From the NCBI GenBank assembly GCA_965116075.1, contig OZ220467.1, forward strand, positions 1,857,067 to 1,921,066: DNA of 64,000 nt. Reading direction: 5' to 3'. Under the pieces are notes generated by a model. The model saw only the letters and a program-made list of their open reading frames with translations, was not told the DNA's origin and made no database searches. Positions 19,054-53,416 of this stretch are shown one piece after another; position 1 is the first letter of the stretch, and every line of letters begins with the position of its first letter. This stretch comes from Thermodesulfobacteriota bacterium. Lineage in GTDB: Bacteria; Desulfobacterota_D; UBA1144; Nemesobacterales; Nemesobacteraceae. A program made the position numbers and the translations under genes.

Positions 19054-19077
19054 TCAGTCTTAACGCCAACCAAAATA

Positions 19078-19152: not shown

Positions 19153-19294
19153 TAGAGTTGTAATAAAAAGATAGAGTGTACCAGAAAATTTTTTTTTGTG
19201 AACTTCTGGATAAAAACGAGTGCCGAATAATACAGATAATTTGACCAGAGATATTTAGCGGCAGTGACCGTGAATGGATTATTGCGTCCAAAGG

Positions 19295-19461: not shown

Positions 19462-19475
19462 TTTGTCGCTAGTCC

Positions 19476-19506
19476 TTGACTTATGTGAGGGGGGGGGGGG
19501 TAAAGT
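19476..19506 (+). promoter_or_regulatory. putative sigma-70 promoter with a G12 tract in the spacer: TTGACT, then 7 nt plus G12, then TAAAGT
   Basis: -35-like TTGACT at 19476-19481, -10-like TAAAGT at 19501-19506, 19-bp spacer containing the homopolymer. Roughly 95 nt upstream of the lipoprotein start codon. Confidence 0.45.
19489..19500. repeat. homopolymeric G12 tract
   Basis: Twelve consecutive G. Confidence 0.9.
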
Positions 19507-20857: not shown

Positions 20858-21013
20858 ATGAGCCTAGCTGACAGACTTCAACAGTTAATAAAATCGCATG
20901 AGAGCAGGACAAGGGATTATGAGGGAAGAATTGAGAAAATGGAAAAGGATATAAGCAAGAATAGGTCTGGCATTGATGAATATCACTCATTCATTGAACG
21001 AGAGAAAGAGTAA
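20858..21013 (+). CDS. small ORF (51 aa) with strong RBS, predicted coiled-coil
   Basis: AAGGAGG seven nt upstream of the ATG; sequence MSLADRLQQLIKSHESRTRDYEGRIEKMEKDISKNRSGIDEYHSFIEREKE. Confidence 0.35.
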   Translation: MSLADRLQQLIKSHESRTRDYEGRIEKMEKDISKNRSGIDEYHSFIEREKE

Positions 21014-21152
21014 ATAAGCGTGATTAAGGAATTCCTATCGTTTGGCCCTGACTATTTGGAGACCCTTGCCTGTATTGTACATGGTGGATAAATCCACAAC
21101 TAAAAAACTTCCATTCCCAAAAAAAAACCGCCCAACAGACTACTCTTTTTAG

Positions 21153-21168
21153 ACAGCACAAATGCCTC
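21153..21168. repeat. solo degenerate copy of the IS terminal repeat (ACAGCACAAATGCCTC)
   Basis: 15 of 16 positions match the TIR. Confidence 0.4.
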
Positions 21169-28960: not shown

Positions 28961-29322
28961 TTTTTATTCCTCTCTATTTCTAAACTTTTATGTCAATTTG
29001 GTCCGGTTTTGGCAGTCTCGACAATCTTGATTTCTGCTTTTTCTGTCTAGTCGGCAACTCATTACAGAATGTTTTTCACTATGCAGAAAAGGAATTAAGT
29101 CCGCAAATTAAACCCGTGTTATTCTTTGGGGCTTGATGAAAATCCCGTGGTTTTCTGCAAGCAGATATGATTCCAGTCTTGCGCAATTGTAGTTTTCCTT
29201 TTGCAGTCTTTGTTCTATAAAGCATTAATAATGGAATAAGTAATTGATTGTTATATCCGAATCCATTGCAGTCTATAATTGAGAAATCTAAGTTATGAGT
29301 TTAATGGGCAGTGAGACATTTG

Positions 29323-29425
29323 CACCGTAACGATTTTTGATGTTGGTTGCCTCTGATGATGGTGGAACCGTCACGGGTTTATTTCTCCGTAGATGATAAA
29401 TTTATCATTAATTTAGGCAACCTAT
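29323..29425. repeat. degenerate left-end (LE-B variant) fragment of the IS/MITE family
   Basis: gagacatttgcaccgtaacgatttttgatg...gatggtggaaccgtcacgggtttatttc aligns with 9028-9110 and with the reverse complement of 31400-31466. Confidence 0.4.
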
Positions 29426-29570
29426 AACACTACTTTAATTGGGGGCCAAATAATCAAAAATTTGTGCTATCATCCACTAAAATAAAATCTATCCTGCGAC
29501 TCAGCGAAATATTCAGACTACCTCCAAATGCGGTGGTGAAATTCTCAGTGCTCCTAACTGTGGAAAAAAG

Positions 29571-29635: not shown

Positions 29636-31099
29636 TCAAACGCGTCTTTTCAGAAAAACAACCGAGAATAGAACAGACACCATAAACAACAGATTAACCA
29701 ATGCACTTTGAGGCGAATGACCTGTACCAGCAATCGCGCATCCGTCATCGTCATCTTTAGCCGATTGAGTCACAGGTGGTGGATAAATACCAGAACCAAA
29801 AATGTGGCGTAGATTTAATGTGGGTATCGCCTTGAGAGATGGGTTCTCTTTAACAGCTTCGGATAGTATATTCACAACTTCAATATAACTTACTTTAAGC
29901 GAAGTACCGGGGACAATCTTCTCTTCAAGGTAGTTCTCATTTTCATCATCTTGAACTTCAGGGTTATCCCAGCGATAGGTAACCCCGTTAGCAGAGTATC
30001 CAGCTTGAGGTTCCTCGTTGTCTTCTCCTTCTACCAACTTCTTTCGAAACAGAGTCACTATCTTTTTGTCTTCGCCTTCTAGTTCTTTATCTTCTAACTC
30101 CAACGTGAGACCATTCAAATTGGGATCGTTTGCGTTAATAAACACAGTACCTTCTGAAGTTGCTGTCATGACGAAAAGATATATGTTTTTATGCTTGAAA
30201 ACTTCAGAGGTACTCAGACAAGCAAATGAACTACTTATCTCCGCAAAACTATCACTAGTGAATTTTGCTATACCCTGCGGAGTAGACAAGTCTAAAGTAC
30301 CAGCACCCTTCTGATCATTGATCAACTTGGAAATTCTAGCGCGCAGAGCTTGTTGATACGATCCAATGGAACTTTTTACATAACCTTTAAGCAGTTCTTC
30401 TGTTGGGTTCTTATATACATCCTCAGCGGTAACTGGTAGAGCTGGAAAAACAGAGCAGTCAGGTTTAGAAAAAGGGTTGTTTTCATGTAATTTTCCATCA
30501 TCTTTCCTATTCTCATGATCAAGACCTACTATGATCTTCATAGCGTCCCTAGCTGGTCCGAAAGTTATGCTAATTCCACAAGTTTGTCTCGTTTTACCAT
30601 CATATTTGTAATCTTCGCACTCAGTAGTATTACCTCCGGCTGACTCATTAATTAAAATTTGCAAAGCCTCTGCAGGAGTGTCCTTCACCTTCGTAGAATC
30701 TAACTTGTACCCAAACAGTTCAGGATATTTCGAGTGACTTAATACGGTTCCACCAGCATCCACTACAATCACATACATTTCATCGGTTTTATAAACTTCT
30801 TGTGTTCTGAAATCTCTTGCAATAACTGAAAGCACTTGATTTGCACTTCTGCCAGTCGATTTTATAAGGGAATCATAATGCTCCTTTACATGTGAAAGAA
30901 ATTCCTGAACATCACTTTCAACAGTAGGATCTACATCTTTAGCCCCTTCATCATCCATATCTCCAACATCCTTACCCCCAACATTGACAACATGAGCGGA
31001 TACTTCAGTGGAAATGAACAAGAAAACCACCCCCAACAGAAAAACCAGACTTAGAACTCCCGTGGGGCAAATATTCCTTACAGAACTATCACTTTTCAT
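29636..31099 (-). CDS. secreted/surface protein with two tandem Cache-like (sCache_2-type) domains and a C-terminal GCAIAG/TM helix/KRR sorting-signal-like tail
   Basis: N-terminal signal/anchor. Cache-like segments YVIVVDAGGTVLSHSKYPELFGYKLD and NIYLFVMTATSEGTVFINANDPNLNGL...VTYRWDNP. C-terminal ...KDDDDGCAIAGTGHSPQSALVNLLFMVSVLFSVVFLKRRV. Confidence 0.65.
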   Translation of the reverse strand: MKSDSSVRNICPTGVLSLVFLLGVVFLFISTEVSAHVVNVGGKDVGDMDDEGAKDVDPTVESDVQEFLSHVKEHYDSLIKSTGRSANQVLSVIARDFRTQEVYKTDEMYVIVVDAGGTVLSHSKYPELFGYKLDSTKVKDTPAEALQILINESAGGNTTECEDYKYDGKTRQTCGISITFGPARDAMKIIVGLDHENRKDDGKLHENNPFSKPDCSVFPALPVTAEDVYKNPTEELLKGYVKSSIGSYQQALRARISKLINDQKGAGTLDLSTPQGIAKFTSDSFAEISSSFACLSTSEVFKHKNIYLFVMTATSEGTVFINANDPNLNGLTLELEDKELEGEDKKIVTLFRKKLVEGEDNEEPQAGYSANGVTYRWDNPEVQDDENENYLEEKIVPGTSLKVSYIEVVNILSEAVKENPSLKAIPTLNLRHIFGSGIYPPPVTQSAKDDDDGCAIAGTGHSPQSALVNLLFMVSVLFSVVFLKRRV

Positions 31100-31254
31100 A
31101 TCAATCCTCCTTACACAACGTTTATAAGAACCGTTAACTCACGACACTTGACAGAATAGCCTCACCCCCTACCTAAGTCAAGATTGAGATCTTTATTCTT
31201 CAAGACATTTTTAGGGGTAAGGTTCAGTGGAGACAAATTCTCAATCGCTCAACC

Positions 31255-31466
31255 CCTCTATAAACACCCCTTGAACGCTTACAAACTTTTTAGCCCCAAA
31301 AGACCTAAAATCGACTAATGTAAGCCAAAAACCACAAATTTCACTCCACACTAAAATCGGTTGATATAACCTCTGTAAAAATTCCCCAGCCCAAAAATAC
31401 AAACAACAACCATCAAAAGAAATCAGCATCAAACATCACTACAGCGCAAACGCCTCGGCAATCTAT
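31255..31466. repeat. IS right-end body plus LE-B terminal repeat fragment, reverse orientation; right TIR absent
   Basis: Reverse complement matches 9028-9060 (TIR region, with one A>G change) and 9300-9400 (ttttacagaggttatatcaaccgattttagtgtgg.gtgaaattt..ggcttacattag). TIR variant ACAGCGCAAACGCCTC at 31451-31466. Confidence 0.55.
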
Positions 31467-38958: not shown

Positions 38959-39097
38959 GAGTCTCCTTAATTTCTATCGGTATTTCTAGGCGGGAAGAAA
39001 TATGTCCACACGCATTGGTAAAAATAAGATTTTTTTTCGTGTTGACAAGTATACCTAGGAAAACATTAAGCTATGGGGCAACTAGTGGTAAATAACG

Positions 39098-39160
39098 CCT
39101 AGCGATTCTTGATTTTGGATTTCTTTAATGATGGTGGATTCTCCACGGGTTTACATCCCA
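39098..39160. repeat. short LE-B fragment of the IS/MITE repeat family
   Basis: gcctagcgattcttgat...gatggtggattctccacgggtttacatc aligns with 9040-9110. Confidence 0.35.
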
Positions 39161-39244
39161 ATATTTTGTCCTCTCCCAAACCCCCTTGTTTATATACACG
39201 ATATTGAATCTTACATACCTCTGTATATTTATTTTTGCTAGTGT

Positions 39245-39300
39245 TCCACACAAAAAAGCCCCACGATGACAAGCGTCACCGCAGGGCTTGAAATTGGTAT
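39245..39300 (-). terminator. probable rho-independent terminator for the minus-strand lipoprotein gene
   Basis: GC-rich imperfect hairpin (gccctgcggtgacgcttgtcatcgtggggc) followed by a T6 run on the minus strand. Confidence 0.4.
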
Positions 39301-39313
39301 AAATCTATTTTCT

Positions 39314-40474
39314 TTAGTTGTCTGTAAAAATGTAGGTTCTTGACGTTGCTGAGAAAGAAGCAGTAACAAACTTATATTTTGTTGGGTCGTTTGCAATACT
39401 AGTTGCTTTTGTGCTGTCTGGAGCACCATTAGCGTCGTGAAGCAGAAATGAATGGGTGTAAACACTAGGATCCCTCGCTACTATAATCTTGCCATTTTCA
39501 GCCCTTACTTCTCTCTCTCCACCGCCTTCTGTTGCTACGGGATAACCTATGGAATAGAGTTTGTCTTCTGTAAGGTTAAAGTCCTTGATAACATCCACCC
39601 CAGCATGGTAATGACGAGCAGTAAAGATGTCGGCACCTACTCTACCACGAAGAATATCATCTCCATCTCCACCGTTTATAATGTCAACACCATTACCGCC
39701 GACAAGGTGATCATCGCCAGCTTCGCCGTTTATAGTGTTACCACCATTTCCACCCCAAATATAGTTATCCCCGTTTGTTCCGGTCAGCATGTCATCGCCA
39801 TTACCACTATAAAAATCTTCAATATCTTCAAATATAACCTTGCCTAATTTCTCAAGAGGTTCAGAACCACCTTCAAAACTTCCAGAAGAAAGATCAAAAG
39901 TTATATTATTGTTGACTACGGAACCAGAATAAAAACCCGAAGAGGAGGCACGAGCCCCCTCTGCGGGTGCTTGCCTGAAATAAATTATGTCTTTATCCTC
40001 CCCACCGAACCACTTGTTCTCCCCTGACGCAGATAGAAGATAGAAATGATCTTGTCCATCTTCGCCGTAAAGCGTATCGTTATCATCTCCACCCATCAGC
40101 CTATCATTTCCCTTACCTGCATAAACAACATCATCACCAGCAAGCGTTCTTATATCATTGTCGCTATCATTTGCGCAGACGATATCGGCATCCTGTGTTC
40201 CTTCAATGCTTCTCATGCCAGGGAGTACATTTATCCCGTTACTCTTATCGCATCTCGGGTCGTTTTCAACGCCGTCGCCTTTGTCACCTTTATCGCCTTT
40301 CGCTCCGTCCTTTCCTGGATCACCTTTGTCCCCCTTTGGTCCCGCCGGTCCGCGTTCGCCTTGAGGCCCTTGCACTCCGTCTTTCCTCGCTGGCCCTCTC
40401 TCTCCCTCACAAGCTACAAAAAAAACTGCTCCAGTAAGCAGCAACAACATCACTAATAAACTACGTAACTTCAT
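39314..40474 (-). CDS. paralogous lipoprotein with collagen-like GXY repeats and RTX calcium-binding repeats
   Basis: N-terminus MKLRSLLVMLLLLTGAVFFVACEG, near-identical to the 19602 gene. GXY run (GERGPARKDGVQGPQGERGPAGPKGDKGDPGKDGAKGDKGDKGDG); GGxGxD repeats; shared C-terminal ...FTDN. Confidence 0.75.
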   Translation of the reverse strand: MKLRSLLVMLLLLTGAVFFVACEGERGPARKDGVQGPQGERGPAGPKGDKGDPGKDGAKGDKGDKGDGVENDPRCDKSNGINVLPGMRSIEGTQDADIVCANDSDNDIRTLAGDDVVYAGKGNDRLMGGDDNDTLYGEDGQDHFYLLSASGENKWFGGEDKDIIYFRQAPAEGARASSSGFYSGSVVNNNITFDLSSGSFEGGSEPLEKLGKVIFEDIEDFYSGNGDDMLTGTNGDNYIWGGNGGNTINGEAGDDHLVGGNGVDIINGGDGDDILRGRVGADIFTARHYHAGVDVIKDFNLTEDKLYSIGYPVATEGGGEREVRAENGKIIVARDPSVYTHSFLLHDANGAPDSTKATSIANDPTKYKFVTASFSATSRTYIFTDN

Positions 40475-40555
40475 ATTACAACCTCCCTTATAAGTTGTTC
40501 CATTTATCTGGCAAAACCTTGTTATAGAACCCTCATTCTTACAATTAGTCTTTTG

Positions 40556-40600
40556 ATTTTACCCCCCCCCCCAGGGCTTTCTAATTTTTTAGAGGCGTAA
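40556..40600 (-). promoter_or_regulatory. putative promoter with a G11 tract (minus strand: TTAGAA, then 6 nt plus G11, then TAAAAT)
   Basis: The minus-strand sequence downstream of the G tract is ~85% identical to the 19501-19601 5'UTR of the paralogous gene. Confidence 0.4.
40562..40572. repeat. homopolymeric C11 tract (G11 on the gene strand)
   Basis: Eleven consecutive C. Confidence 0.9.
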
Positions 40601-40899
40601 GTCGTTGATATTACCGAGTATATCCTTTCAAAGAGAGTTTTGCATCTTAGAGGTTGCCACTACGTCATGGAGAGAAATTAGAGACTCATTTGTCTTCCCT
40701 TTCTAGCTGACATGTAGAAGAATTAGGCTCGGTTTCAGTCCTTCGTAAGTTTTTTCTTATAACAAACACTTCTGAATTATAATCTGCGGAGTTGGATATG
40801 TAGGGAGAATATATCCAAGGTAGTACATTGTCATTTGGGGATTTGAGAAAACAGTGAAGTAATATTAGTACGTTATAATCCGGATATTCCAACAGAGAT

Positions 40900-43014
40900 A
40901 TTAAGTCACAATTCGGTTTCTTCGTTGTTAGATTTCGATCTGGACGTTACAAATTTAGTTCTGGCTATTTAATGTTTGTTATGGTATGGTGTAGATCATG
41001 AGTAGACAGATGTCTCAGGATAATAAGATTGATCTGCGCGCGATCACAGTACGTCCTACCTATGGGGAACAGGAGCGTCGTCACTGGGACCACTTAGTCA
41101 GACTACATCACTATCTTCCATTCCATCGCGTGTTCGGCAAGGGATTGCGTCATGTAGCGGAAGTTGGGTCGCGTTGGGTGGCGCTTATTGGTTGGCAGGC
41201 AGGCGCATTCAAGTTAGCGGCCCGAGACCGCTGGATTGGCTGGAGCGCCGAGCAGCAGTTTGGACGCTTGCATCTGATTGCCAACAATGTGCGGTTTGTC
41301 ATTCTGACACGGCAGCGGGTGGCGAACTTGGCATCCCGAGTGCTGGGTCTGAGTCTGAGGCGGCTGTCTTCGGACATGCAGACAGCGCACGGTTATCCAG
41401 TGTTTCTGGCTGAGACGTTCGTAGATATTTCACGTTTTAATGGTACTTGCTACCGGGCGGCCAACTGGCAGTCTTTCGGGCTAACGCGCGGGTTTGCCCG
41501 TGAGTCTGGAGGGTCTGCGCGGTGGCGCTATCATGGTCAACCCAAGGAGGTCTTCATGTTTAATCTCGTTGATAATGCTAAAGAAGTATTAAGTCAAGAA
41601 GAGTTACCACCAGAATGGACCGGTGGGGTTCGTAAGGAGCCTATGACGGCGCCACAGTTACGCAGTCTCAAAGATGTTCTAGGTAAGGTGCCTGAGTTCC
41701 GAAAGTCTCAAGGTAGACGCTATCCTCTTGTCACCGTGTTGGTTCTCGCTGTCGCCGCCCGTTTGGCTGGATACCGCGGGGTGTCCGCCATAGCGCAGTT
41801 CGCCCGACTACTTAGTCAGGAACAGCTTAAGGCCGTTGGAGCGTTCTACAGTCCCAGTAAGAAATGCTACACTGCGCCGGTAATTGCCACCTTCCATAAC
41901 ATCTTCGCAAAACTGCCACCCGACACGCTTGATAAAGCGCTGAACCTGTGGGAAGCCCGCAAGACCTCGCCCGCAGCGCCGGTGGCGATGGACAGCAAGA
42001 TGATTCGTGGCGCAGCCAAGCAGACTGAGGGTGGAATTAGAATGATGGTAGCTGCCCTCGAACATAACACCGGCGTGGTTCTCGGTCAACTAGCAATCAA
42101 AGAAAAGAGCAGTGAGATGCTAGTGGTACGCGACCTAGCCAATAAACTCGACATTGCTGATCGTACTGTCACTCTAGATGCGCTGCATGCCCAGCAGGAT
42201 ACGGCGCGCTGTCTGCTGGAAAATGGAGCCGACTATGTGATGACCGCCATCAAGAACAATCAAAGAAGGATCAGCAAGGAAATAAAGGGATTGGACTTTG
42301 ATGCTGTGCCAGGATGGACAACCGAAGATTATAAACATGGGAGGATTGAAGAACGGACCTGTTGGGTAGTAGACCTATCCGGTTCTGAGTGGGATGGACA
42401 TGTAGGCATGCACGGACGGCGTCAAGCCATACGCATAGTCCGCAAGCGCACTGAGAAGAAGACAGGTAAAACCAGTTGCGAGACTGTCTATGCTCTGACC
42501 TCACTTGGCCCAGAGCAGGCTGGAGCCAAGGAGTTACTTGCTCTGGTTCGCAACCACTGGCACATTGAGAACCGTCTGCATTATGTGCGTGACTTCACCT
42601 ACGATGAAGACCGTTGTCGGGTATCAAAAGGGTACTTACCGGAAAATCTTTCCTGTCTGAGCAACGTTGTCATCGCCATAGTGCGTTGTGAAGGTAGATT
42701 CAACTATCTGCCTGAAGCTAACCGACACTATGCCGCCCGGCCTCAGGAAGCTATTGAACTTATAATGAAGCCGTTGAACTGAACGGTCGCACTTTACTCA
42801 CAACCCCGCCGGATAGCCTGTGCACTGCTCAGGTCTGATACCCTACGCCTACTGGACGGACAAAGGCTGCGTACACTGTAAGATGAAGCCGAATGTACCC
42901 TTGTTTCTTGCTAAAACTCTCCATCTGAAGTCCAAATCACAATCCAAACACTCCAAAACATCTATCTACCCAACCCTATACAAAGTCCCCGCTACGAAAA
43001 CTGAATGGTCCTGA
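40900..43014 (+). mobile_element. ISAs1-family insertion sequence (approximate boundaries)
   Basis: Contains the ISAs1-type transposase ORF; its right boundary is placed where the conserved lipoprotein-promoter remnant (G10 at 43015) begins. Confidence 0.5.
40998..42782 (+). CDS. ISAs1-family transposase with an N-terminal Arg-rich extension (594 aa)
   Basis: C-terminal NHWHIENRLHYVRDFTYDEDRCRV signature of ISAs1 (H-repeat-associated) transposases; DDE core upstream. Confidence 0.8.
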   Translation: MSRQMSQDNKIDLRAITVRPTYGEQERRHWDHLVRLHHYLPFHRVFGKGLRHVAEVGSRWVALIGWQAGAFKLAARDRWIGWSAEQQFGRLHLIANNVRFVILTRQRVANLASRVLGLSLRRLSSDMQTAHGYPVFLAETFVDISRFNGTCYRAANWQSFGLTRGFARESGGSARWRYHGQPKEVFMFNLVDNAKEVLSQEELPPEWTGGVRKEPMTAPQLRSLKDVLGKVPEFRKSQGRRYPLVTVLVLAVAARLAGYRGVSAIAQFARLLSQEQLKAVGAFYSPSKKCYTAPVIATFHNIFAKLPPDTLDKALNLWEARKTSPAAPVAMDSKMIRGAAKQTEGGIRMMVAALEHNTGVVLGQLAIKEKSSEMLVVRDLANKLDIADRTVTLDALHAQQDTARCLLENGADYVMTAIKNNQRRISKEIKGLDFDAVPGWTTEDYKHGRIEERTCWVVDLSGSEWDGHVGMHGRRQAIRIVRKRTEKKTGKTSCETVYALTSLGPEQAGAKELLALVRNHWHIENRLHYVRDFTYDEDRCRVSKGYLPENLSCLSNVVIAIVRCEGRFNYLPEANRHYAARPQEAIELIMKPLN

Positions 43015-43024
43015 CCCCCCCCCC
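43015..43024. repeat. homopolymeric C10 tract in an orphan copy of the lipoprotein promoter module
   Basis: Reverse complement ...ctttctcgctagttcttgactttgtgag-G10 matches 19461-19500 (ctttgtcgctagtccttgacttatgtgag-G12). Confidence 0.9.
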
Positions 43025-43053
43025 TCACAAAGTCAAGAACTAGCGAGAAAGAA

Positions 43054-43217
43054 GGCATTTGCGCTGTAGGGTTTTTGGGAGTGGTTTTAGACGAATGAGG
43101 ACGTATGAACGCATGTTCAACACTGTTTCAGTTCGTACTGATTCGTATTTGAGCAATCTGATGGGCAGATTTCTTGATTTTCCCGCAATTTCCTGCTGAT
43201 TTCCGCACAATTATCAG
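43054..43217. repeat. solo left-end (LE-A) copy of the IS at 46583, forward orientation
   Basis: GGCATTTGCGCTGTAGGGTTTTTGGGAGTGGTTTTAGACG...CAATTATCAG aligns throughout with 46585-46749. Confidence 0.55.
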
Positions 43218-43256
43218 ATATATTTTCTGCGTGGTAAAATCAATACATTCCGTTCC

Positions 43257-44297
43257 ATGAAAAAAACAAATCCTCGGAAGATAAATATTCCTGAGAAAGA
43301 TATTTCATCCCTTGATCTGCCCTCTAGACCCAGAAGAAATCGCAAGTCGACTTCTGTGAGAAACCTAACTAGAGAAACCCTGTTGGCGGTGGGTGACCTC
43401 GTATATCCGCTTTTTATCCATACCAAAAACACAGACGATGAAATAGAATCAATGCCGGGATGCAAGAGATGGAGTATTGATGGACTTGTAAAGGAAGCGA
43501 AGGAGGCATTTAGTGTCGGTATTGGAGCAGTGATGCTATTTCCCGTAATTGAGAATTCCTACAAATCCCCCCTAGCCGAAGAGTGTTATAATCCGAGCGG
43601 GCTTGTCCCAAAAGCGGTTTGCGCGTTGAAAAAAGAGGTTCCTAAAATAACGGTAATAACGGATGTCGCTCTTGACCCTTATTCAAGCGAAGGTCACGAT
43701 GGAGTGGTGTCTCTTCGCGGAGAGATACTCAATGACGTCACAGTGGAGGTGCTCTGCAAGCAGGCTCTGTGCCATGCGACGGCCGGAGCAGATATCGTAG
43801 CTCCGAGCGATATGATGGATGGTCGTGTTGGCGCTCTAAGAGAAGTTCTTGACGAAAATAACTACACAAACGTTTCGATTATGTCTTATACGGCCAAGTA
43901 CGCATCCGCTTTTTACGGACCTTTCCGCGGGGCGCTTGACTCCGAGCCCAAAGGTGGGGACAAGATGACGTACCAAATGCACCCTGCAAACTCCAGAGAA
44001 TCTATCCGAGAATTACTAGCAGATGAGCAAGAGGGCGCAGACGTGGTTATGGTAAAGCCTGCAGGATATTATCTGGATCTAGTTTATATGTTTCGTGAAA
44101 ACAGTGATCTTCCTGTAGCAGCGTATCAGGTAAGCGGAGAGTATCTTATGATAAAGGCTGCGGCAGAATCAGGATGGCTTGATGAGGAAAAAGTGATTAT
44201 TGAGAGTCTTTTGGGAATAAAAAGAGCAGGGGCTGACATAATAATCACCTATTTTGCTAAAAAAGCGGCCAATCTTTTGGCAAGACCAAATGGTTAG
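43257..44297 (+). CDS. hemB: porphobilinogen synthase (delta-aminolevulinic acid dehydratase)
   Basis: RPRRNRKSTSVRNLTRETLLAVGDLVYPLFI N-terminus and active-site region (VKPAG, YQVSGEY). Confidence 0.9.
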   Translation: MKKTNPRKINIPEKDISSLDLPSRPRRNRKSTSVRNLTRETLLAVGDLVYPLFIHTKNTDDEIESMPGCKRWSIDGLVKEAKEAFSVGIGAVMLFPVIENSYKSPLAEECYNPSGLVPKAVCALKKEVPKITVITDVALDPYSSEGHDGVVSLRGEILNDVTVEVLCKQALCHATAGADIVAPSDMMDGRVGALREVLDENNYTNVSIMSYTAKYASAFYGPFRGALDSEPKGGDKMTYQMHPANSRESIRELLADEQEGADVVMVKPAGYYLDLVYMFRENSDLPVAAYQVSGEYLMIKAAAESGWLDEEKVIIESLLGIKRAGADIIITYFAKKAANLLARPNG

Positions 44298-44430
44298 AGA
44301 AATGACCACTTCTCTTTCACCTAACTAAATTAATAGCAGGAAGGAAAAACAGATCACGCTTTACAAAATCCTCAGACAGTATAGAGTTTTTGTTTATTTA
44401 AAAGGGAAAAACACTCGGTGAATAGATAAA

Positions 44431-44697
44431 ATGAAAAAAGGCATTCATCCTAATTACGGCTATGTAGTTTTTAAAGATTCTTTTACAGGGCACATGTTCC
44501 TTACACGGTCCACGAAAACCTCCGAAGAAACAGTTGCTTGGGAAGATGAAAACGAATATCCATTGATAACTGTTGAAATATCAAGTGACTCTCATCCTTT
44601 TTTCACTGGAAAGGAAAAACATTACAAAAAAGAAGGAAGAGTTGAAAAATTCCGCCGCAAGTACCAAAAAAACTCCTCTCAATCTACAGAGCAGTAA
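44431..44697 (+). CDS. rpmE2: 50S ribosomal protein L31, type B (no zinc-binding Cys pairs)
   Basis: [16 protein letters not shown]...HPFFTGK L31 signature without CxxC motifs. Confidence 0.8.
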
Positions 44698-45049
44698 TCA
44701 TTCTGATCTGACGTCAGATGACGGCTAGGCAGAAAACGATAACCGTTTTTAGACCATAGCAATTATAAACAACTGAGGAAGTGGGTAGACCGTAGGTCAT
44801 CCGTGCGTTCCGGATAGACTTGCCCAAATTTTTTGTAAAGCTTTACAAACCTTCTGCGATCATGTCCGCTCGAATTTGATAGAACACGGCGAAGACCTGT
44901 ACCTTTTACCAACTCAAAACCGGGTCATCTCCTTCCAAACATTTGGATATAACGGATCTCCCATATATCAACACTTCAAGCACGCGTAGAAAGAAGATCA
45001 AAATAGTATTCTGAGTCCTCAAGTCTTTCTTTGTATAACTCCCAAGTTT

Positions 45050-45336
45050 ATCCTGTCACCCATTAAAAACTTCTCCAATTGTCTATAGAGCACATAGCCA
45101 CAAGAACCAGCCTCGTAGCAGAACAATAGCACTTGGCCAGCAAATCGTTGTTCTAACCGAGAGACAAGCTTCTTTATCTCCTGTGGACGATTAGGCTATC
45201 TCTCCAAGGAATTCAGGGTCTTCACGTCCTTCGCAAGCCACAGATACTGCAATAGTCTCCTTATGTACGTCTAAGCCTATGTACGCAGGATAGTTGTGAT
45301 TGCTACAACCAGTCTCCGACTTCGTGTTGAACTTCA
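45050..45336 (-). pseudogene. IS110-family transposase N-terminal fragment (truncated, with in-frame stop)
   Basis: Minus-strand translation MKFNTKSETGCSNHNYPAYIGLDVHKETIAVSVA..., then after a stop ...KLVSRLEQRFAGQVLLFCYEAGSCGYVLYRQLEKF. This is the IS110 DEDD N-domain signature (IGxDVHK, YEAGxxGY). RBS ggagg upstream. Confidence 0.5.
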
Positions 45337-45343
45337 TGATAAT

Positions 45344-46500
45344 TTAACCTCCTAGTGTTCCGTCAAGCAATGATTTTGGGTAGAGAGACTTAAGTCTGCA
45401 ACGGGCATCGGCAACCGACATACGCCAGTTCACACCACGCTGGCTTGCGTTGACGCGTTGCGACCACGCCGTTACTTCTGCCCGCAACTCGTCTAAGTCC
45501 CCGATCCGTAGACCCTTCAGACACTGCCGCGTCAGACAACTCAACTCGCACTCCGCCACGTTCAGCCAACTCGCGTGCTTTGGGGTGTACTGGAACTTGA
45601 TGCGCTGTCTCAACCGCCGTGCCCGCTCCGGCTCAAAAGCCTCGTATAACGCTCCCAGCGTGTGCGTGTTGAGGTTGTCCAGCACCAGCGTGATCATCTC
45701 GCAGTTTGCATAGCGATTCTCCAGCAGAGCCGCCACCTCCTCCGCCCAGTCCAATTTAGTGCGCCGCTCTCGCACCGTCACCGTGCGCCAACCTGCCAGC
45801 GGTTCACAGAACAGGAACACCAAGGCCATGCCGGCCCGTTGATACTTATAGTCCACACGGTGCGGATGCTCCGTGGTTGCAGGCAATGGCTGGCGGGTTT
45901 CCCCCACCATCTGTAGTCCATGCAAAACACTGGCCGCCGCTCATCGTAAGGCTCCTCGTAGGTCGACAGAACATCTTCCATGGCCGCCACATACTCCCCG
46001 TCCGCCTTCGGCGGAATCACCCAGTACTGCAGGTAGCGTCCCGCTATACCGTTTTTTTTAATGTCTTGTTGACGGTTTCGTGGCTGATCAATTCACAGAT
46101 GCCGGTCTCAACCGCCTCGCTTGCCAGCAGACGTAGCGACCATTGACCGCAACCGGCCGGTGGCGACCCCAGCCGTAGTGCGATCAGCGCGGCTTCCTGC
46201 CGCCCGTCCAAAAGCTTCGGTGGTCAGGTGGACGGGTTCTGTTGCCGCCCGTTGAGGGCCAACTCAAAACCTTCCAGCACACAACATTTACGCACGTTCG
46301 CGACGGTGCGCTCCTGACAACCGTAGGCCTCCGCGACCTGGTGGTCGCACCAGTTCGGCCCGTCCGCATCAACTTGTAGCAGAATACGCGCCCTGCACGC
46401 TTTCTGACTGCTACCCTTGAGTTTCTTGATGACCTCCCGACATGTCTTGCGTTCGGCCTCTGACAGGCGCACAATGTACTTCTTCATGGTTACTTCTCCT
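45344..46500 (-). pseudogene. IS630-family (Tc1/mariner-like) transposase split across three frames
   Basis: HTH N-terminal part 46224-46500 (...IVRLSEAERKTCREVIKK...). DDE part at 45344-45925 (VLDNLNTHT...YTPKHASWLNVAECE). Intervening piece 45778-46020 in a third frame. Confidence 0.65.
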
Positions 46501-46582
46501 TTGTTATAGAAAGATGGCTTGGGACACAGATCCCTCGCCTTAAAACACATTATACACAAAATGTTGATCTTGACGCAACACT

Positions 46583-48567
46583 GAGGCATTTGCGCTGTAA
46601 GGTTTTTGAGAGTGATTTTAGACGTAATGAGGTCATATGAACACATGTTCAGAACCGTTTCAGTTTGTACTGATTCGTATTTGAACAATCTGACGGTCAG
46701 ATTCCTTGATTTTCGCAGGATATGATGCTGATTTTCGCCCAATTATCAGCCTTTAGACGCAACTATACATTCACGGCCACTACCGCTAAATTCCTCTGGT
46801 CAAATTATCTGTAGTATTCGGAGAAAAACCCTATCCAGCCCGAGGAGCACACCCAGAAACAAGGGACCTCATCTTATCAGCCCTTCCAGCCTTTATGTGT
46901 CCAATGGCTAACGCCATCATCACACTCAACGCTAAGCCTGTACGAGCAGTCATTTTTGCCTTGCCTCTGATAAAATGCCTCTCTAACTTAAAACTATTGT
47001 CAACCCTTGAGTTTATACGTTCTATAGAATTCCTAAGCTTATACTCCCGCTCCCAAGTTACTGAACCATACGGAGTCGGGGTAAAAATACGAGGGTCCTT
47101 GTCCAAAGGAACTCGTATGGATAAGCCATATTCACTGTTCTTACGACCCGCATTTTTGTGACACTTCTCCCTGCCTACGCAATTCAGGTTATGCGCTGCC
47201 GCAGGACAACGAAACTTCAAAGTACCTCGCTCCTCTTCATATCCCCAACCCACCAACTTACTTTCTACCTTGGTTATAGGACAACGACACCAAACCTCGC
47301 CCTTCTCTGTGTAGAATATGTTGTTAATATCTTCTCTCAAAGGCCGCATAATCTTTTGCCCAGCAATATAGTTCTGATTCTCCAACTCCACCCTCCACAT
47401 CTCTCGGATACCAATTATAGGGTCAGTTCCATATTCGTTCCAAAACTTCTTCTTCAATGACTCACTGTCAAGACCCTTGTCTGCGCTGAAATATTCGCAT
47501 CGCTCCACCAACTCAGGGTTCTGCGCAAACAACTTGTCTATCATCCGATTCAACTCCTTATATTCTGATACAGATGCCTTTGTAAGACTCATCGCAACCG
47601 GTATCTCATACTTGGTATCGGCAATTACATGCAACTTGTAACCAAACCATCTCTTTACGCTTTTCCATGCCTTGCCTGTAGCAGAGTTAAACCCAGACGT
47701 AGTATGTACTCCCCAGTCCGCATCAGGATCGGATGTCTCTCCTGTCTTATTGCTCTTTCTCCCTGTGGAATTACTCTCTATAGACTTACCGTCATATCCT
47801 AGATGCTTCCCAAAATCCGGAAGCGATTCTCTCAACTCTCCTCCCATTCTATCCATCATTTTCGAAATCAGACCGTCGCGTTGCTCCAACTTCGCTACGT
47901 TTGATAGAAACCGAGAGAAATTGTGACTGCTAGGCGCCGTACTGTAGATAGGAAATTGTTTAACCACAACTTTAGGTCTCCCGCCGTTTTCATCCTGCTC
48001 AAGACTGTACTTGTCAATATGTTGTATGGGAATGGGACAGAATCCACATCTATTAAGTAGTTCAGAATTACGGTTCAGTTCCCGTATCAGTGATTCTATG
48101 GATTCGTGCTGAAACACTACGCCAGCAATCGTCGCCCTCCACATTGGTTCTACCGGATACTCATTACGCCCGTTCTTGCGCATAGCTTTCAAAGCCCTAA
48201 TGATATCTTCATCAGGCAAAGCATCCAAAACCAACTCAAGACGGTTGAGGTCTGAAATCTCATCAATTTGTTCCCAAGAGAATGGTAAATACTTTTTTTG
48301 TAGCAACTGTTTGCTCCTTATAGAGAGAATGTGTGAATGTTAGGAAGAATAATAACTGATATAGAATGTAAAGCAAGTAATATCAGCAAGTTATTTATCT
48401 CTTTCCCAAGTTTTTCAGGGAGAAATCGGCAACTGGTTTATGTGGGGTGAAATTTGTGGTTTTTGGCTTACATTAGCCGATTTTAGGGCTTTTTTGGGGT
48501 AAAAAGTTTTTTACCCCTTCTAAAAACCCTTGATATACATACATCTTTTGGACAGCGCAAATGCCTC
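46583..48567 (-). mobile_element. intact insertion sequence (~1985 bp) with perfect 16-bp TIRs and one DDE transposase ORF; master copy of the dispersed LE/RE repeats
   Basis: GAGGCATTTGCGCTGT at 46583-46598 and ACAGCGCAAATGCCTC at 48552-48567. LE interior matches the 43054 and 19295 copies; RE interior matches 9300-9501 and 31255-31400. Confidence 0.7.
46831..48306 (-). CDS. DDE transposase, IS4/IS5 superfamily (family unassigned)
   Basis: 491 aa. DDE region (GYKLHVIADTKYEIPVAM...) and C-terminal E(x6)R/K signature (SIERINSRVDNSFKLER) typical of the IS4/IS5 superfamily. Confidence 0.8.
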   Translation of the reverse strand: MLQKKYLPFSWEQIDEISDLNRLELVLDALPDEDIIRALKAMRKNGRNEYPVEPMWRATIAGVVFQHESIESLIRELNRNSELLNRCGFCPIPIQHIDKYSLEQDENGGRPKVVVKQFPIYSTAPSSHNFSRFLSNVAKLEQRDGLISKMMDRMGGELRESLPDFGKHLGYDGKSIESNSTGRKSNKTGETSDPDADWGVHTTSGFNSATGKAWKSVKRWFGYKLHVIADTKYEIPVAMSLTKASVSEYKELNRMIDKLFAQNPELVERCEYFSADKGLDSESLKKKFWNEYGTDPIIGIREMWRVELENQNYIAGQKIMRPLREDINNIFYTEKGEVWCRCPITKVESKLVGWGYEEERGTLKFRCPAAAHNLNCVGREKCHKNAGRKNSEYGLSIRVPLDKDPRIFTPTPYGSVTWEREYKLRNSIERINSRVDNSFKLERHFIRGKAKMTARTGLALSVMMALAIGHIKAGRADKMRSLVSGCAPRAG

Positions 48568-48742
48568 AACACTAGTTGAAATCTTTTTCCTTCCTTACTT
48601 TCAGCATACCCACCCTTTGAGGACGGGAAGGTCAAATCATCATGACTAAGTATATAACCCCTCACATCATTTGAGTTGTTGAATATAAGATCAAAAACAT
48701 GGTATAGTCAGTTTATAATATTTTATTTCTAGGAGGTGTAAT

Positions 48743-50236
48743 ATGAAGTTTGTTGGATGCTTTCAAAGGGCTCATTCTATAAGAATCCTGACTCTATTTT
48801 TCGTAGGTGTCATGTTATTATTTACATTCGCTCATACTACTAAAGTATTAGCTCATGATCCTAGCGATGCCGATGATAAGAAAGCTTCAGACGTAGATGT
48901 TACAAGTAAGGCAGATGTTGAGGGATTTCTCTCACATGTAGTGGAACATTATAATTCTCTATCGGAATCGTCGTTAAAGGAAAGAAGTGAAGACTCATCA
49001 ACATCGCGACAGTTTGCACCTGCCGCCAGAGAGTTAAGGACCAATCCGGTCTACAAAGACCTTGACAGGGGAATGTATGTAATTTTAATAAACTCTGGTG
49101 GAACTGTATTAAATCACTCGGCATATCCCGAACTTTTTGGGTACAAGTTTGATATGACTTCTATTGAAGGGGATGACAATGAAGGAGAGGACACGACTCC
49201 TGCTGAAGCTTTACAAGTTTTAATTACGGAGTCAACTGGAGGTAATACTAAGTGCAAAGATTATAAATATGGTGATAAAACGAGATGGGCCTGCGGAACC
49301 CGTGTAAATTACGGACGTTTCGAGGATGTTATAACGGCCGTAGTAGGTCTTCATCATGAGAATAAGAAAGATGATGGGAAGTTACATGAAAACAACCCTT
49401 TTTCTGAACCTGACTGCCCTGGTTTTCTAGAGTTAAAAACCACTGCTAAGAAGGTACATATGGATCCGACGGAGGCCAACCTTAAAGCTTTTGTAAGAGA
49501 ATCTATTGAATCGCTTAACCACGCTGTAGCTAAAGGTATGTCCGATCTAGTAGGTAAGCAGACCTCAGACTTCTTGTCTACTGAGCAGAAACGATTGGAT
49601 TTTGCTGAGAAAATCGCTGTTAAGTTAACTAGTTTAGCTGGTTGTGCTAATGTTGAAGAATTCAAGCATGAAAACATATATCTTTTCGCTATGACGGCAA
49701 CTCCAGAAGGTACTGTGTTTGTTAACGGAAACAATGCCGATTTGAATGGTCTTACACTAGAGTTAGAAGATGGAGAGTTAGACGGTGATGACAAAAAAAT
49801 AGTGACCCTGTTTCGAAATGCGTTGATACCTCAAAATAGAAAGGAAAAGAAACCCAAAGTTGGAGATTCCGCTATAGTCGAATACCGATGGAGCGACCCT
49901 GCTAAAAACGGTACTGATCTGATTAAGAACTGGCTTGAAAATAACAGTGTTCCCGGCACTACGCCTAAGAAAAGTTATATTCAAGTGACGGATATAACAT
50001 CTGGAATTGACGAAAAGATTCGGAAGATTCCAGGACTTGGTCAGTTACTGGACGGCATAACTCTCAAGATCGTTGGTTCTGGGATTTATCCAACCCCAAC
50101 AACTCCAGCGACTAAAGATGACGATGACGGATGCGCGATTGCTGGAACAGACCATTCATCTCAAAACGCTTTGGTTAATCTATTGTTGATAACATCTGTT
50201 CTGTTCTCAATTGTTTTTTTGAGAAGACGCGCTTAA
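48743..50236 (+). CDS. paralogous secreted/surface protein with tandem Cache-like domains and C-terminal GCAIAG/TM helix/RRR tail
   Basis: Shares blocks with 29636-31099 (GGNT.C.DYKY, HENxKDDGKLHENNPFS.PDC, ENIYLF.MTAT.EGTVF, LNGLTLELED.EL.G.DKKIVTLFR) and the C-terminal KDDDDGCAIAGTDHSSQNALVNLLLITSVLFSIVFLRRRA. Confidence 0.65.
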   Translation: MKFVGCFQRAHSIRILTLFFVGVMLLFTFAHTTKVLAHDPSDADDKKASDVDVTSKADVEGFLSHVVEHYNSLSESSLKERSEDSSTSRQFAPAARELRTNPVYKDLDRGMYVILINSGGTVLNHSAYPELFGYKFDMTSIEGDDNEGEDTTPAEALQVLITESTGGNTKCKDYKYGDKTRWACGTRVNYGRFEDVITAVVGLHHENKKDDGKLHENNPFSEPDCPGFLELKTTAKKVHMDPTEANLKAFVRESIESLNHAVAKGMSDLVGKQTSDFLSTEQKRLDFAEKIAVKLTSLAGCANVEEFKHENIYLFAMTATPEGTVFVNGNNADLNGLTLELEDGELDGDDKKIVTLFRNALIPQNRKEKKPKVGDSAIVEYRWSDPAKNGTDLIKNWLENNSVPGTTPKKSYIQVTDITSGIDEKIRKIPGLGQLLDGITLKIVGSGIYPTPTTPATKDDDDGCAIAGTDHSSQNALVNLLLITSVLFSIVFLRRRA

Positions 50237-50264
50237 TTTATACGACTTTTAAGATTTGTTTATT

Positions 50265-50300
50265 GAACAAGGGCGGTTTAAAAACCGTCCTTGTTCTTTT
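50265..50300 (+). terminator. rho-independent terminator
   Basis: gaacaagggcggttt / aaaccgtccttgttc stem (one mismatch) followed by TTTTCTT. Confidence 0.55.
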
Positions 50301-50488
50301 CTTCCAGAGTTCAGAATTGATTTACCGCAATTAGCAACGTTTCTGTTTGCAAATACGCTACTACGGAAATAGACTCATAAGTTGGTGTGTACACAGCGCT
50401 GATATATTTCTTCTAATCAAGTGTTGTCCACATTATTCACCGTAGAAACAGCATAAATAAGGAGATTGAAGAACTCCGCCTTGGCTTT

Positions 50489-51146
50489 TTGCCCTCTGTG
50501 AAGGAGGCTTTCCATATTCAGAGAAATCTTTCACAGATGGTGGTTCAGATCCCGAGTTCTGCAGATATAAGCACTGTAGCTGGAGTGGATATAGTCGTCT
50601 GCGCAAAGGAGAACAAACTTATCTGTGGAATCATTCTTTTTTCCTACCCAGAGATAAAAGAGGTTGAGAGAGTCTGGACCGTTTCGGATGAAGTCTTTCC
50701 TTATGTTCCGGGGCTTTAGGGAAGTTCCGTCTGTAATGAAAACGTTTAAAAAACTCAAGAACCGTTGTGACATGCTTATGATAGACGAACACGGGATTGC
50801 TCATCCGAGAAGATTTGGGCTCGCATGTCATGTCGGCGTGTTGCTAGATGTCCCAGCAATCGGGGTTGCGAAGAAAAGCCTTTACGGAACCTTTGAGAAT
50901 CTTGGTCTCGCAAGAGGTGAGAGAACGTTTATAAAAGGAGAAGACAACTCTGACGTAATAGGGGTGGTTTTGAGAACAAGGGATGGAGTAAAGCCCGTAT
51001 TTATATCAGTTGGTCACAGAACCGATATTGATACGGCAGTTGCTATTGTACTTAAGTGCTTAAGCGGGTTAAGAATTCCAGAACCTACAAGGCTTGCGGA
51101 TAAATACGTTGCTTCGCTTAAGAAGGAAGCATGCCTTTTTTATTAG
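50489..51146 (+). pseudogene. nfi: endonuclease V (nfi) interrupted by a +1 frameshift in a GGGG run near 50710
   Basis: N-terminal part ends ...YVPGL*; the other frame continues FREVPSVM...DEHGIAHPRRFGLACHVGVLLDVPAIGVAKK (EndoV signature). One extra G in ccgggg explains the shift. Confidence 0.7.
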
Positions 51147-51393
51147 TACAAGAACTCGTTCAGAGGTACATACAGTTACTTGGTTCATTGTCCTTAAATA
51201 TCTTCGCAGACACCCTTCTTTCTCCACTGCACTCGGTATGGTTATGCCCACTACATACAGCGAAACTCTCTTAGCCCAAGTTTACCCAAAACCTACTAAA
51301 AATTGGCTATTTTCGGCCTTTTTTTCTCTTTTTTCCTACGGGTGAGCTTCGTATGTTAGTGATATGCCGTTATTTATAATTTTGAAAAGGCAA

Positions 51394-53336
51394 ATGTAGT
51401 GCCATACTACGCTTTTTACCCCTTGACATACATCTTACAATGTAATAATATCTCTATATATGTTCATTCGTCGCACTAAAACCAGAAAGGACTATGATTT
51501 CTTCACCTTCCGCCTCGTACGCTCCGAGCGTATAGGTAAAAAGGTGAAGCAACGTACTTTGCTCAACCTAGGAAGTAATTTTAATGTTGATCCCAAACAC
51601 TGGTCCCTGCTTTGCTATCGAATCAAGCAAATTCTCTCTGGTCAGTCTTCCCTATTAGATTATGAGATACCTTCTGAGTTGGAATCTCATGCCCAACAGA
51701 TTACTGCGCAATTGTTGGCCAAACGACGCGTTGGCTTCACAACCGAACTGGGATCTAGTAAGAACTCAAAGCCCGACTATCAGTGCGTTGACGTTAACTC
51801 TACGAAGACGATTCGGCCCCGTTCGGTAGGAGTAGAAAACGTAGCTCTGTGGGCGATGGACCAACTTGGTTTGCGTCAGTTACTTAATGAATTGGAATTA
51901 ACTCCGTCGTTGCGCGATGCCGCCATAGGTTCTATAGTAGCGCGTATGGCCGAGCCGGGTTCTGAGCAAGCCACTAGGCGTTGGTTAGCCAAAAGTAGCG
52001 CGCTTGGTGAGTTGATAGGAGTTGAGTTTGAGAAGATGGGAGCAATGCAGTTATATCGCGCTTCTGATGCGTTAATGGCGCACCGTGAAACCCTGGAACG
52101 TCATTTGTTCGAACGAGCGATGGAGTTATTTGATCTGAGTCCCACGATCACGCTCTACGACCTGACCAATACTTATTTTGAGGGAGGTGTAGACGGTATT
52201 GCAGAGGCAAAACGCGGGCACTCTAAGGAGAAACGTTCTGACTGTCCGTTACTCACTTTGGGGATGGTGGTTGACGCTAGCGGGTTTACTCGGCGCTTCA
52301 AAGTCTTTGCAGGTAATGTACGAGAGCATCAAACATTATCTGAGATGCTGAAACAACTTGACGCTCCCGCAAATGCCCTTGTGGTGATGGACCGAGGGAT
52401 TGCCACCGAAGACGGAGTACAGTGGCTACAAGAACAAGGCTATAAGTATGTTGTCGTCAGCAGAGAACGTAATCGTCAGTTTGACCCTGAGGGAGCTATA
52501 CGTCTTGAGACCGCATCAAATCATGGAGTCATTCTAAAAAAAGTGCTTTCAAAGGACGGCAAAGAGGTGAGACTGTACTGTTTCTCTGAATCCAGAGCGG
52601 CGAAGGAAGAATCCATCAGCAAGCGGTTCACCGAGAAGTTTGAAGAAGGACTGACTGCTCTATCGGAAAAGCTTACACGACCGCGCACAGTAAAACGGAT
52701 TGATAAGATATGGCAGAGTATAGGTCGTCTGCAAGGAGAAAGTCAAGGAATATCTCAACACTATAAGGTGGAAGTTGATACTGACGACAGTGGTAAATAC
52801 GCTACTGCAGTACGCTTTACTCGCAAGCCGGTGAGCGGCACGATGCTCACTGATCCTGGAGTGTACTGTCTGCGAAGCAACGAAACTGATTGGGACGAAG
52901 CCAAACTGTGGCGAACTTACTTCACTCTCACTGATATAGAAGCGGTATTCCGTTCTCTGAAGTCAGAACTTGGGTTACGCCCGATTTTCCACTGGAAATC
53001 GGTTAGAGCCGAAGGGCATCTGTTCATTACAGTGATAGCATATCAGTTGGTACAGGTTATCCGTACTAAGTTACGTCTGGCTGGTAAGCAAGCTAGTTGG
53101 AACACGCTACGCAATATTCTTGAGGACCAACGACGTACCACTTCGACCCTTCGTCGCCGTGATGGTAAAACGCTACATGTGCGCACGACTAGTCAACCGG
53201 AGTCAGAGCAACAGGAAATTTTAGGTGCATTGGGGGCTGACTTCACGGCGGGAGGAATGCAAAAGACGGTAGTATAATGTGCGCTTATTTTTGCAGAAAA
53301 TAGTTCCCGTAACAAAATGTAGTGCCACACCAATTT
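51394..53336 (+). mobile_element. IS1634-family insertion sequence (approximate boundaries)
   Basis: Transposase ORF flanked by the 13-bp direct repeat AAATGTAGTGCCA at 51394 and 53316. The IS1634 family is known for long and variable target duplications. Confidence 0.45.
51460..53277 (+). CDS. IS1634-family transposase
   Basis: N-terminus MFIRRTKTRKDYDFFTFRLVRSERIGKKVKQRTLLNLG is the typical IS1634 start; 605 aa. Confidence 0.8.
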   Translation: MFIRRTKTRKDYDFFTFRLVRSERIGKKVKQRTLLNLGSNFNVDPKHWSLLCYRIKQILSGQSSLLDYEIPSELESHAQQITAQLLAKRRVGFTTELGSSKNSKPDYQCVDVNSTKTIRPRSVGVENVALWAMDQLGLRQLLNELELTPSLRDAAIGSIVARMAEPGSEQATRRWLAKSSALGELIGVEFEKMGAMQLYRASDALMAHRETLERHLFERAMELFDLSPTITLYDLTNTYFEGGVDGIAEAKRGHSKEKRSDCPLLTLGMVVDASGFTRRFKVFAGNVREHQTLSEMLKQLDAPANALVVMDRGIATEDGVQWLQEQGYKYVVVSRERNRQFDPEGAIRLETASNHGVILKKVLSKDGKEVRLYCFSESRAAKEESISKRFTEKFEEGLTALSEKLTRPRTVKRIDKIWQSIGRLQGESQGISQHYKVEVDTDDSGKYATAVRFTRKPVSGTMLTDPGVYCLRSNETDWDEAKLWRTYFTLTDIEAVFRSLKSELGLRPIFHWKSVRAEGHLFITVIAYQLVQVIRTKLRLAGKQASWNTLRNILEDQRRTTSTLRRRDGKTLHVRTTSQPESEQQEILGALGADFTAGGMQKTVV

Positions 53337-53416
53337 TTTATGACATCTAACCAGCTGATATCTAACATTTATTTTTTGGACATGTTAAACTTGGGTTAGA
53401 TTTCGGTTAACCACTT

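Follow-up and report, generated by a model that had tools for sequence, protein, structure and literature searches.

We analysed a stretch of 64,000 nucleotides (the window) from contig OZ220467.1 of a Thermodesulfobacteriota bacterium, in which a complete insertion sequence (IS) of 1985 bp occupies positions 46583–48567, with its transposase gene on the minus strand. A preliminary description of the same DNA had called this IS intact and had taken it as the source of a repeat family found in the intergenic regions of the window. The IS ends in perfect 16-bp terminal inverted repeats (TIRs; 16/16 bases). The left TIR, GAGGCATTTGCGCTGT, lies at 46583–46598 on the plus strand and is the transposase-distal end, and its inverted copy at 48552–48567 on the minus strand is the transposase-proximal end; related IS copies carry the motif at the equivalent ends. 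On both flanks we found the 6-bp sequence AACACT (46577–46582 and 48568–48573), a target-site duplication (TSD). The corresponding site of a sister strain holds a single AACAC, with AGTTG directly after it. The IS was delimited by its TIRs, the flanking AACACT and its absence from the sister contig L082.

The insertion sequence and its relatives

The sole long open reading frame (ORF) of the IS, at 46831–48306 on the minus strand, encodes a transposase of 491 amino acids. It starts with TTG, and a Shine-Dalgarno sequence, AAGGAG, can be read 7 nt upstream. The protein matches the Pfam models DDE_Tnp_1 (PF01609, E 2e-12, 47.6 bits with a cut-off of 23) and DUF772 (PF05598, 26.2 bits with a cut-off of 23.1). 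It aligns end to end with homologues of 485–491 amino acids, covering 100% of their length, and retains 140/140 of the columns invariant in 19 homologues, including D172 and D276; conservation at E429 is at least 90%. A Cys-rich insertion (C340, C342, C367, C376, C382) is conserved as well. The AlphaFold model (mean pLDDT 73) has a strand-rich core and a beta-rich insertion. When it was compared with PDB structures, the piggyBac transposase came out best and Mos1 next, a weak match (TM 0.35) that would fit a DDE transposase. Searching PDB sequences with the family profile gave no match.

The best NCBIfam match was IS1182 (NF033551, E 6e-22), in which only residues 186–460 were aligned and the score of 78.2 bits did not reach the curated cut-off of 270 bits. 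The IS5 models NF033579/80/81, with cut-offs of 110–140 bits, were not reached either (27.8–35.6 bits). Since the protein has DUF772 and DDE_Tnp_1 yet scores under both sets of cut-offs, we place it, judging by its sequence, as a member of the IS5/IS1182 superfamily outside both curated families. Its clade is widespread and apparently unnamed; it was placed by Pfam and NCBIfam and may already bear an ISfinder name. A tblastn search of plasmids returned distant partial matches and no IS-family names, and a literature search on the features of ISDol1 and IS1182 yielded nothing usable.

Near the transposase-proximal end, at 48487–48529 on the minus strand, lies an imperfect subterminal palindrome with the motif TTTACCCC (48503 to 48496), which is 65–72 nt inside the end. 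Among 20 ends from several phyla, T66 and C69–C72 of this motif were invariant and A68 was at least 90% conserved. The palindrome is predicted to form a hairpin, and the 278-nt 5' region gave z = −3.3. It probably acts as a second site of protein binding or of regulation. In a consensus scan neither IS end showed a promoter-like site, and terminator-like sites were likewise missing.

The age of the insertion became clear from the sister strain (ENA ERZ24894574, contigs L080, or ctg6213l, and L082), which is 98–99.6% identical to the window strain. Contig L082 is colinear with window positions 43217–46581 (98.3%) and 48567–51274 (98.4%), with an overlap of 6 bp and with the 1985 bp absent. Apart from the empty site itself, all bases within 40 bp are identical to the window. 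The other sister contig, L080, has an IS copy of 95.6% identity at a different site. Because the copy at 46583–48567 is absent from so similar a strain, it is a recent, strain-specific insertion, younger than the split of the two strains. The window transposase is identical to protein P0123, and P0001 and P0124 differ from it by 2–3 residues (at least 99.4% identity). The source chromosome, a contig of 2,386,527 bp to which other window proteins also map, encodes at least three full-length transposase variants and three truncated ones. The TIRs, TSD, full-length DDE transposase with Shine-Dalgarno sequence and TTG codon, empty site and near-identical copies elsewhere all bear out the description of the IS as intact. 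It is a real, well-bounded and recently active IS, and it alters nothing that is known about the mechanism of IS elements in general.

About 12 kb of the window are covered by the sister contig, and in this part three blocks differ between the strains: the IS at 46583–48567, a second IS of 2.1 kb, and a block with an RTX gene and an ISAs1-like element. Variation between the strains in this region therefore stems mainly from mobile elements, which are concentrated around paralogs of secreted or surface proteins. The second IS (51275–53395, 2121 bp) has the TIR CCCAAGTTTA and a 4-bp TSD, TTAG (51271–51274 and 53396–53399). It encodes a DDE_Tnp_1 transposase of 605 amino acids (51460–53277, plus strand) and is absent from the sister strain, where TTAG occurs once. 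Directly left of the site of the first IS, both strains have a frameshifted remnant of the IS630 family (window 45344 to ~46560), with the C-terminus of its transposase at 45344–45925 and a helix-turn-helix near 46224–46480.

A profile scan with one genome per species found 79 loci encoding relatives of the transposase, with 51–66% amino acid identity. Their sources were metagenome-assembled genomes (MAGs) of about 2 Mb bearing the label Thermodesulfobacteriota or Candidatus Dadabacteria, along with Gamma- and Alphaproteobacteria. Inverted 16-mers resembling GAGGCATTTGCGCTGT flank the gene in most of the loci, ~1.90–2.05 kb apart. A direct repeat of 4–8 bp was present at 39/47 copies, one rearranged MAG being left out; it measured 5 bp in 24 cases, 6 bp in 11, 4 bp in two, and 7 and 8 bp in one case each. 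As the same TIR bounds relatives across genomes, the 16-mer is a family-wide IS terminus. The preliminary description would have been refuted had the 16-mer been confined to this window and missing from IS termini elsewhere; instead, it bounds IS copies in many genomes. Azotimanducaceae MAGs have their own MITEs (miniature inverted-repeat transposable elements) of 317–318 bp, made from the two ends of the local IS.

Two further observations concern these data. In MAG CBDAUE01 (L027–L043), 0/16 near-identical IS copies have a TSD of their own, while 11/16 left flanks find a 5–7-bp partner at the right flank of another copy, and one closed cycle links five copies. This pattern would come either from massive IS-mediated rearrangement or from repeat-induced misassembly. 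The 22-mer of the right end, searched in metagenomes, gave a single match inside an ORF of 840 amino acids that lacks IS features, which we took as chance.

Relics of the IS lineage in the window

With up to three mismatches allowed, GAGGCATTTGCGCTGT matched the window at nine places, while shuffled sequences gave 0.37 on average and none reached nine. Exact matches are at 9028 (plus strand), 9486–9501 (minus), 46583 (plus) and 48552–48567 (minus). One mismatch is found at 19445–19460, 21153–21168 and 31441–31456 (all minus) and at 43052–43067 (plus), and three mismatches at 29313–29328 (plus). The nine sites named in the preliminary description are thus real, three of them with positions 2–10 nt off (31451, 43054 and 29323 are actually 31441, 43052 and 29313). 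A tenth, degenerate copy had been put at 39098. This region has no recognisable 16-mer (7/16 bases at 39085), and what stands of the claim is that 39085–39158 is 66% identical to the start of a MITE described below.

The copying of sequences internal to the IS ends was checked by BLAST and nhmmer and held up. Nucleotides 4–239 of the IS match 19223–19457 with 83% identity, a longer fragment than had been reported, and nucleotides 2–167 match 43053–43217 with 85.5%. The right non-coding region (48368–48567) is about 90% identical to 9273–9501; a part of it, 48437–48509, is 90.5% identical to 31283–31355, and the match to the right non-coding region at 31278–31363 is of about 90%. In a self-BLAST of the window, all non-genic repeats were either IS-derived or part of a duplication of RTX genes. 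It is correct, then, that the intergenic repeats share homology with the ends of IS elements of this lineage, that nearly all of them are accounted for in this way, and that they adjoin paralogs of surface proteins. For annotation, this attribution keeps IS-end relics from being taken for regulatory RNAs or repetitive extragenic palindromic (REP) elements.

Two of the relics are dead fragments of the IS left end. One (19223–19460, minus strand, IS nt 239 to 1) lies 141 bp upstream of an RTX/collagen-like gene at 19602–20759. The other (43052–43217, plus strand, IS nt 1–166) is a paralogous copy of 19295–19460. Together with its flank, 43015–43217 is 87% identical to 19295–19498, and the two copies share 37 bp outside the TIR, up to a poly-G run. 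When an ISAs1-like insertion was removed in silico, the homology ran on into the upstream region and the body of the RTX/collagen-like paralogs. In L080, every unit of an array that holds at least three RTX/collagen-like genes begins with a 239-bp left-end fragment. The units follow each other in tandem in the sister strain, whereas those of the window are dispersed and inverted. The block 39222–43217 (~4 kb), which holds an RTX/collagen gene, the ISAs1-like element and the left-end fragment and has no TIR-defined ends, is absent between htpG and hemB in L082, where 51 unrelated bp (~415–466) are found instead. Since the two left-end copies share both flank and gene context, we read 19223–19460 and 43052–43217 as segmental duplicates that were not spread by transposition.

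The array in L080 (1–15900) is interleaved with IS66-type, ISAs1-like and DruA-domain ORFs, and poly-G tracts of G12–G14 stand upstream of its RTX/collagen-like genes; such tracts could be prone to slippage. The ISAs1-like element of the window (~40573–43014) has ends starting with CAGG and a 96% identical copy in L080. It interrupts a poly-G run, leaving G10/G11 on its two sides; the paralogous site without the insertion (19490–19501) has G12. Its 594-amino-acid protein has the Pfam domains DruA (Druantia), DDE_Tnp_1_assoc and DDE_Tnp_1. The genes for tRNA-Leu(taa) and tRNA-Cys(gca), at 18967–19152 on the minus strand, are 70 bp from the left-end fragment at the head of the RTX/collagen unit. 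A small ORF of ~50 codons (20866–21020), which lies downstream of the RTX gene, has a good Shine-Dalgarno sequence, MSLADRLQQLIKSHESRTRDYEGRIEKMEKDISKNRSGIDEYHSFIEREKE. Its region is conserved in the sister-strain array, and ORFs of 39 amino acids are called at the equivalent position.

A complete, non-autonomous MITE of 474 bp with perfect 16-bp TIRs lies at 9028–9501 on the plus strand. Over its right 229 bp it shows about 90% identity to the transposase-proximal non-coding end of the IS. The left 133 bp represent a different end type from the IS left end: BLAST and nhmmer found no match to the left end of the window IS beyond the TIR, and that of the sister-strain IS matched at nt 2–27 only. 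After the 16-mer the MITE reads AGCGAT, a pattern that many related IS copies show at their transposase-distal end. It contains no ORF longer than 55 amino acids. The sister strain has an 87% identical MITE (L080 360–814) with a perfect 6-bp TSD, ATTTCT, on both sides, which means that the MITE has moved. The window holds one complete and one decayed copy of it, and the sister strain one in 21 kb and a mini version in L082.

The decayed copy, a short one (31207–31456, minus strand, MITE nt 1–50 and 279–434), lies ~100 bp upstream of the gene at 29636–31099 and has an unrecognisable right TIR. It is interrupted by a 50-bp remnant of another element, 31228–31277, which matches the ends of DruA-domain ORFs in L080. 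A solo MITE-type left end whose TIR has three mismatches (29313–29444, plus strand) is found downstream of the same gene. The degenerate MITE-type left end at 39085–39158 (plus strand), which corresponds to the first 74 nt of the MITE, is within a mini-element of ~140 bp, and the sister strain keeps a recognisable right TIR, ACATCGCAAATGTCCT. Finally, a solo remnant of the transposase-proximal type, with one mismatch in its TIR (21115–21168, minus strand), lies downstream of an RTX/collagen-like gene. The remnants at 21168 and 39085 are each downstream of one of two RTX paralogs. We considered them as paralogous and rejected this, as the homology ends ~90 bp past the stop codon.

Two genes next to IS ends, 29636–31099 (minus strand) and 48743–50236 (plus strand), encode Cache-like secreted paralogs with 50% amino acid identity. 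Both proteins share a C-terminal tail of DDDDGCAIAGT, a hydrophobic stretch and RR, which looks like a sorting signal. We found 53 homologues, most without a source name and one annotated as Candidatus Dadabacteria; there are 3–4 paralogs per genome, in differing contexts. In a relative with 1.98 Mb, ~230 bp homologous to the IS left end (L081 3737–3942), with a decayed TIR, lie 59 bp upstream of a Cache-like paralog. Co-duplication of an IS right end with the Cache-like gene was rejected: the IS upstream of 48743 is strain-specific and the products are only 50% identical, so the adjacency of the two genes to IS ends arose independently.

Origin of the repeats

We consider it very probable that 46583–48567 is a live copy of a multi-copy DDE IS of the IS5/IS1182 type and that the other repeats are products of older members of its lineage. 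The host, with its chromosome of 2.39 Mb, is probably akin to Dadabacteria. According to this reading, the 491-amino-acid transposase would recognise the 16-bp TIRs, as its family suggests, and the IS would have entered through a staggered target cut of 5–6 bp. The complete MITE at 9028–9501 would presumably have been moved in trans by the transposase. A left-end fragment of 166–239 bp became fixed beside an RTX/collagen-like gene and spread together with it by segmental duplication, giving 19223–19460 and 43052–43217. The clustering near surface-protein paralogs would reflect hitch-hiking in duplication units together with repeated insertion in a variable, insertion-tolerant region.

Several points weigh against this interpretation. 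The empty site in L082 (3826–3831) reads GACGCAACAC-AGTTG and is thus a T short of what a clean AACACT duplication predicts. The window MITE has no TSD (its flanks are AAAAAC and TTAACT). We infer the transposition activity of the transposase from strain polymorphism and near-identical copies, and the movement of the MITE in trans is likewise deduced. In addition, end fragments recur just upstream of paralogous genes, also at L081 3737–3942, and might have a regulatory role.

The original proposal was that the intact IS copy is itself the source, with all other copies its transposition products and a MITE family made from its two ends. All copies do share the 16-mer and are homologous to IS ends, one MITE is complete, and the sister-strain copy has a TSD. 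However, the repeats are only 83–93% identical to an IS that is recent and absent from a strain 98–99.6% identical, which makes this copy a current member of the lineage and not the source of the repeats. The left arm of the MITE is not the left end of this IS, and the two left-end copies share flank and gene context as segmental duplicates. The picture of a mobile repeat family also fails, since most other copies are single, solo or decayed ends and the left-end pair goes back to segmental duplication. We therefore find it very improbable that this copy gave rise to the repeats. Still less credible, to the point that we give it almost no weight, is a 16-mer that was a host intergenic repeat of REP-like type, targeted or captured by the IS. 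Several relatives do have repeated flanking sequence (GCGTGCTATTA lies to the left of L010, L012, L013 and L016 alike). But the 16-mer terminates IS copies in genomes labelled Thermodesulfobacteriota/Dadabacteria, Gamma- and Alphaproteobacteria, and the window copies reach 50–240 bp into IS-internal sequence, a homology that refutes a REP-like origin. Rfam found no RNA family in the repeats, its only matches being the two tRNAs.

The other two alternatives concern the genes next to the repeats. Domestication of IS-end fragments as promoters, operators or terminators of surface-protein genes would explain why such fragments stand 40–180 bp upstream of four window genes and are kept right before RTX/collagen-like and Cache-like paralogs, why every RTX unit of the sister strain has kept its left-end fragment, and why the L081 sequence lies close to its Cache-like paralog. 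Yet the scan that found no promoter-like site in the IS ends argues against it, the orientation to the gene varies (at 19460 the TIR is the proximal end, at 43052 and in L081 the distal one), hemB of the sister strain has no such fragment upstream, and hitch-hiking accounts for the retention without a function. We regard domestication as improbable.

Somewhat less improbable, though still unlikely in our view, is that the TIR pair 29313 (plus strand)/31456 (minus strand) bounds a mobile cassette of 2144 bp that carries the Cache-like gene for 487 amino acids, and that IS-mediated mobilisation disperses the paralogs. The two TIRs are correctly oriented, with three and one mismatches, and their distance is near the length of the IS. 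The flanks GGCAGT and GGCAAT match at 5/6 positions (by our own calculation a ~0.5% chance for one pair), and the paralogs are found in unrelated contexts across genomes. No sister-strain protein at least 90% identical to the 487-amino-acid product is recorded; here the sister contig ends inside a thiolase gene, before 31456, and the strain comparison does not reach the TIR pair. Protein-cluster look-ups gave no sister orthologues for most window neighbours. Against a cassette, the two window paralogs are only 50% identical, the right part resembles a separate MITE, decayed and with a degenerate right end of its own, and a TIR is missing both downstream of the other paralog and around P0129 and P0130. 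Descent from older members of the IS lineage thus remains our preferred explanation of the window repeats.

Head-to-tail junctions and comparison with known systems

Among ~85 loci we found 8 junctions in which a left end and a right end are separated by a spacer of 5–8 bp, at least 7 of them in direct orientation. They are in L014, L040, L044, L049, L058, L067 and L080, and none is inside the window. L044 has the arrangement GACAA|MITE|GACAA|IS|GACAA, and L014 the arrangement ACGAA|IS|TATTA|IS|ACGAA, in which a tandem IS dimer has ACGAA on both sides as its own TSD. The spacer is the TSD of the downstream element in L049, L058 and L067, and in L080 the MITE and the full IS are each 6–8 bp from the TIR of an RTX-unit fragment. 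By a rough estimate of our own, random insertion would give such junctions at ~1e-4 per insertion. As 8 in ~85 is far above this, the junctions suggest end-targeted insertion or tandem-dimer intermediates. That the family preferentially inserts head to tail beside a resident end, usually with a spacer as long as the TSD, is a tentative proposal that we would not yet favour. If true, it would mean transposase-guided end-targeting or tandem dimers in an element of the IS5/IS1182 type. Along with the TIR pair around the 487-amino-acid gene, IS ends could then organise arrays of surface-protein genes instead of being passive relics.

Tandem IS dimers and end-targeted insertion occur in IS30, IS21 and IS911; we know of no precedent in IS5/IS1182-type elements. 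The loci described here resemble those systems in their head-to-tail ends with a short spacer, but the spacer is usually of TSD length and not 2–3 bp. With the IS1182 and IS5 families the IS shares a single DDE transposase of ~490 amino acids (DUF772 at the N-terminus, catalytic region of the DDE_Tnp_1/DDE_Tnp_1_6 kind), short TIRs starting with GAG and a short TSD. It differs from them in its scores below the cut-offs, the Cys-rich insertion, its own TIR GAGGCATTTGCGCTGT and the invariant subterminal TTTACCCC.

Bacterial MITEs derived from IS elements include the Correia elements, RUP and Nezha. The 474-bp element is like them in being short and non-coding, in sharing its TIRs with a resident IS and having an arm homologous to the non-coding end of that IS, and in its sister copy with a TSD. 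Unlike them, it has one complete copy in 64 kb, a left arm that does not come from the co-resident IS, and no TSD in the window.

The RTX/collagen genes call to mind IS-flanked gene amplification, as an IS left-end fragment marks the edge of the repeated unit. Here, however, the boundary repeat is a dead fragment of 166–239 bp and not a whole IS, and no TIRs define the ends of the copy between htpG and hemB. IS-end "copies" can thus multiply by hitch-hiking in gene duplications, which matters when repeat counts are used to gauge transposition.

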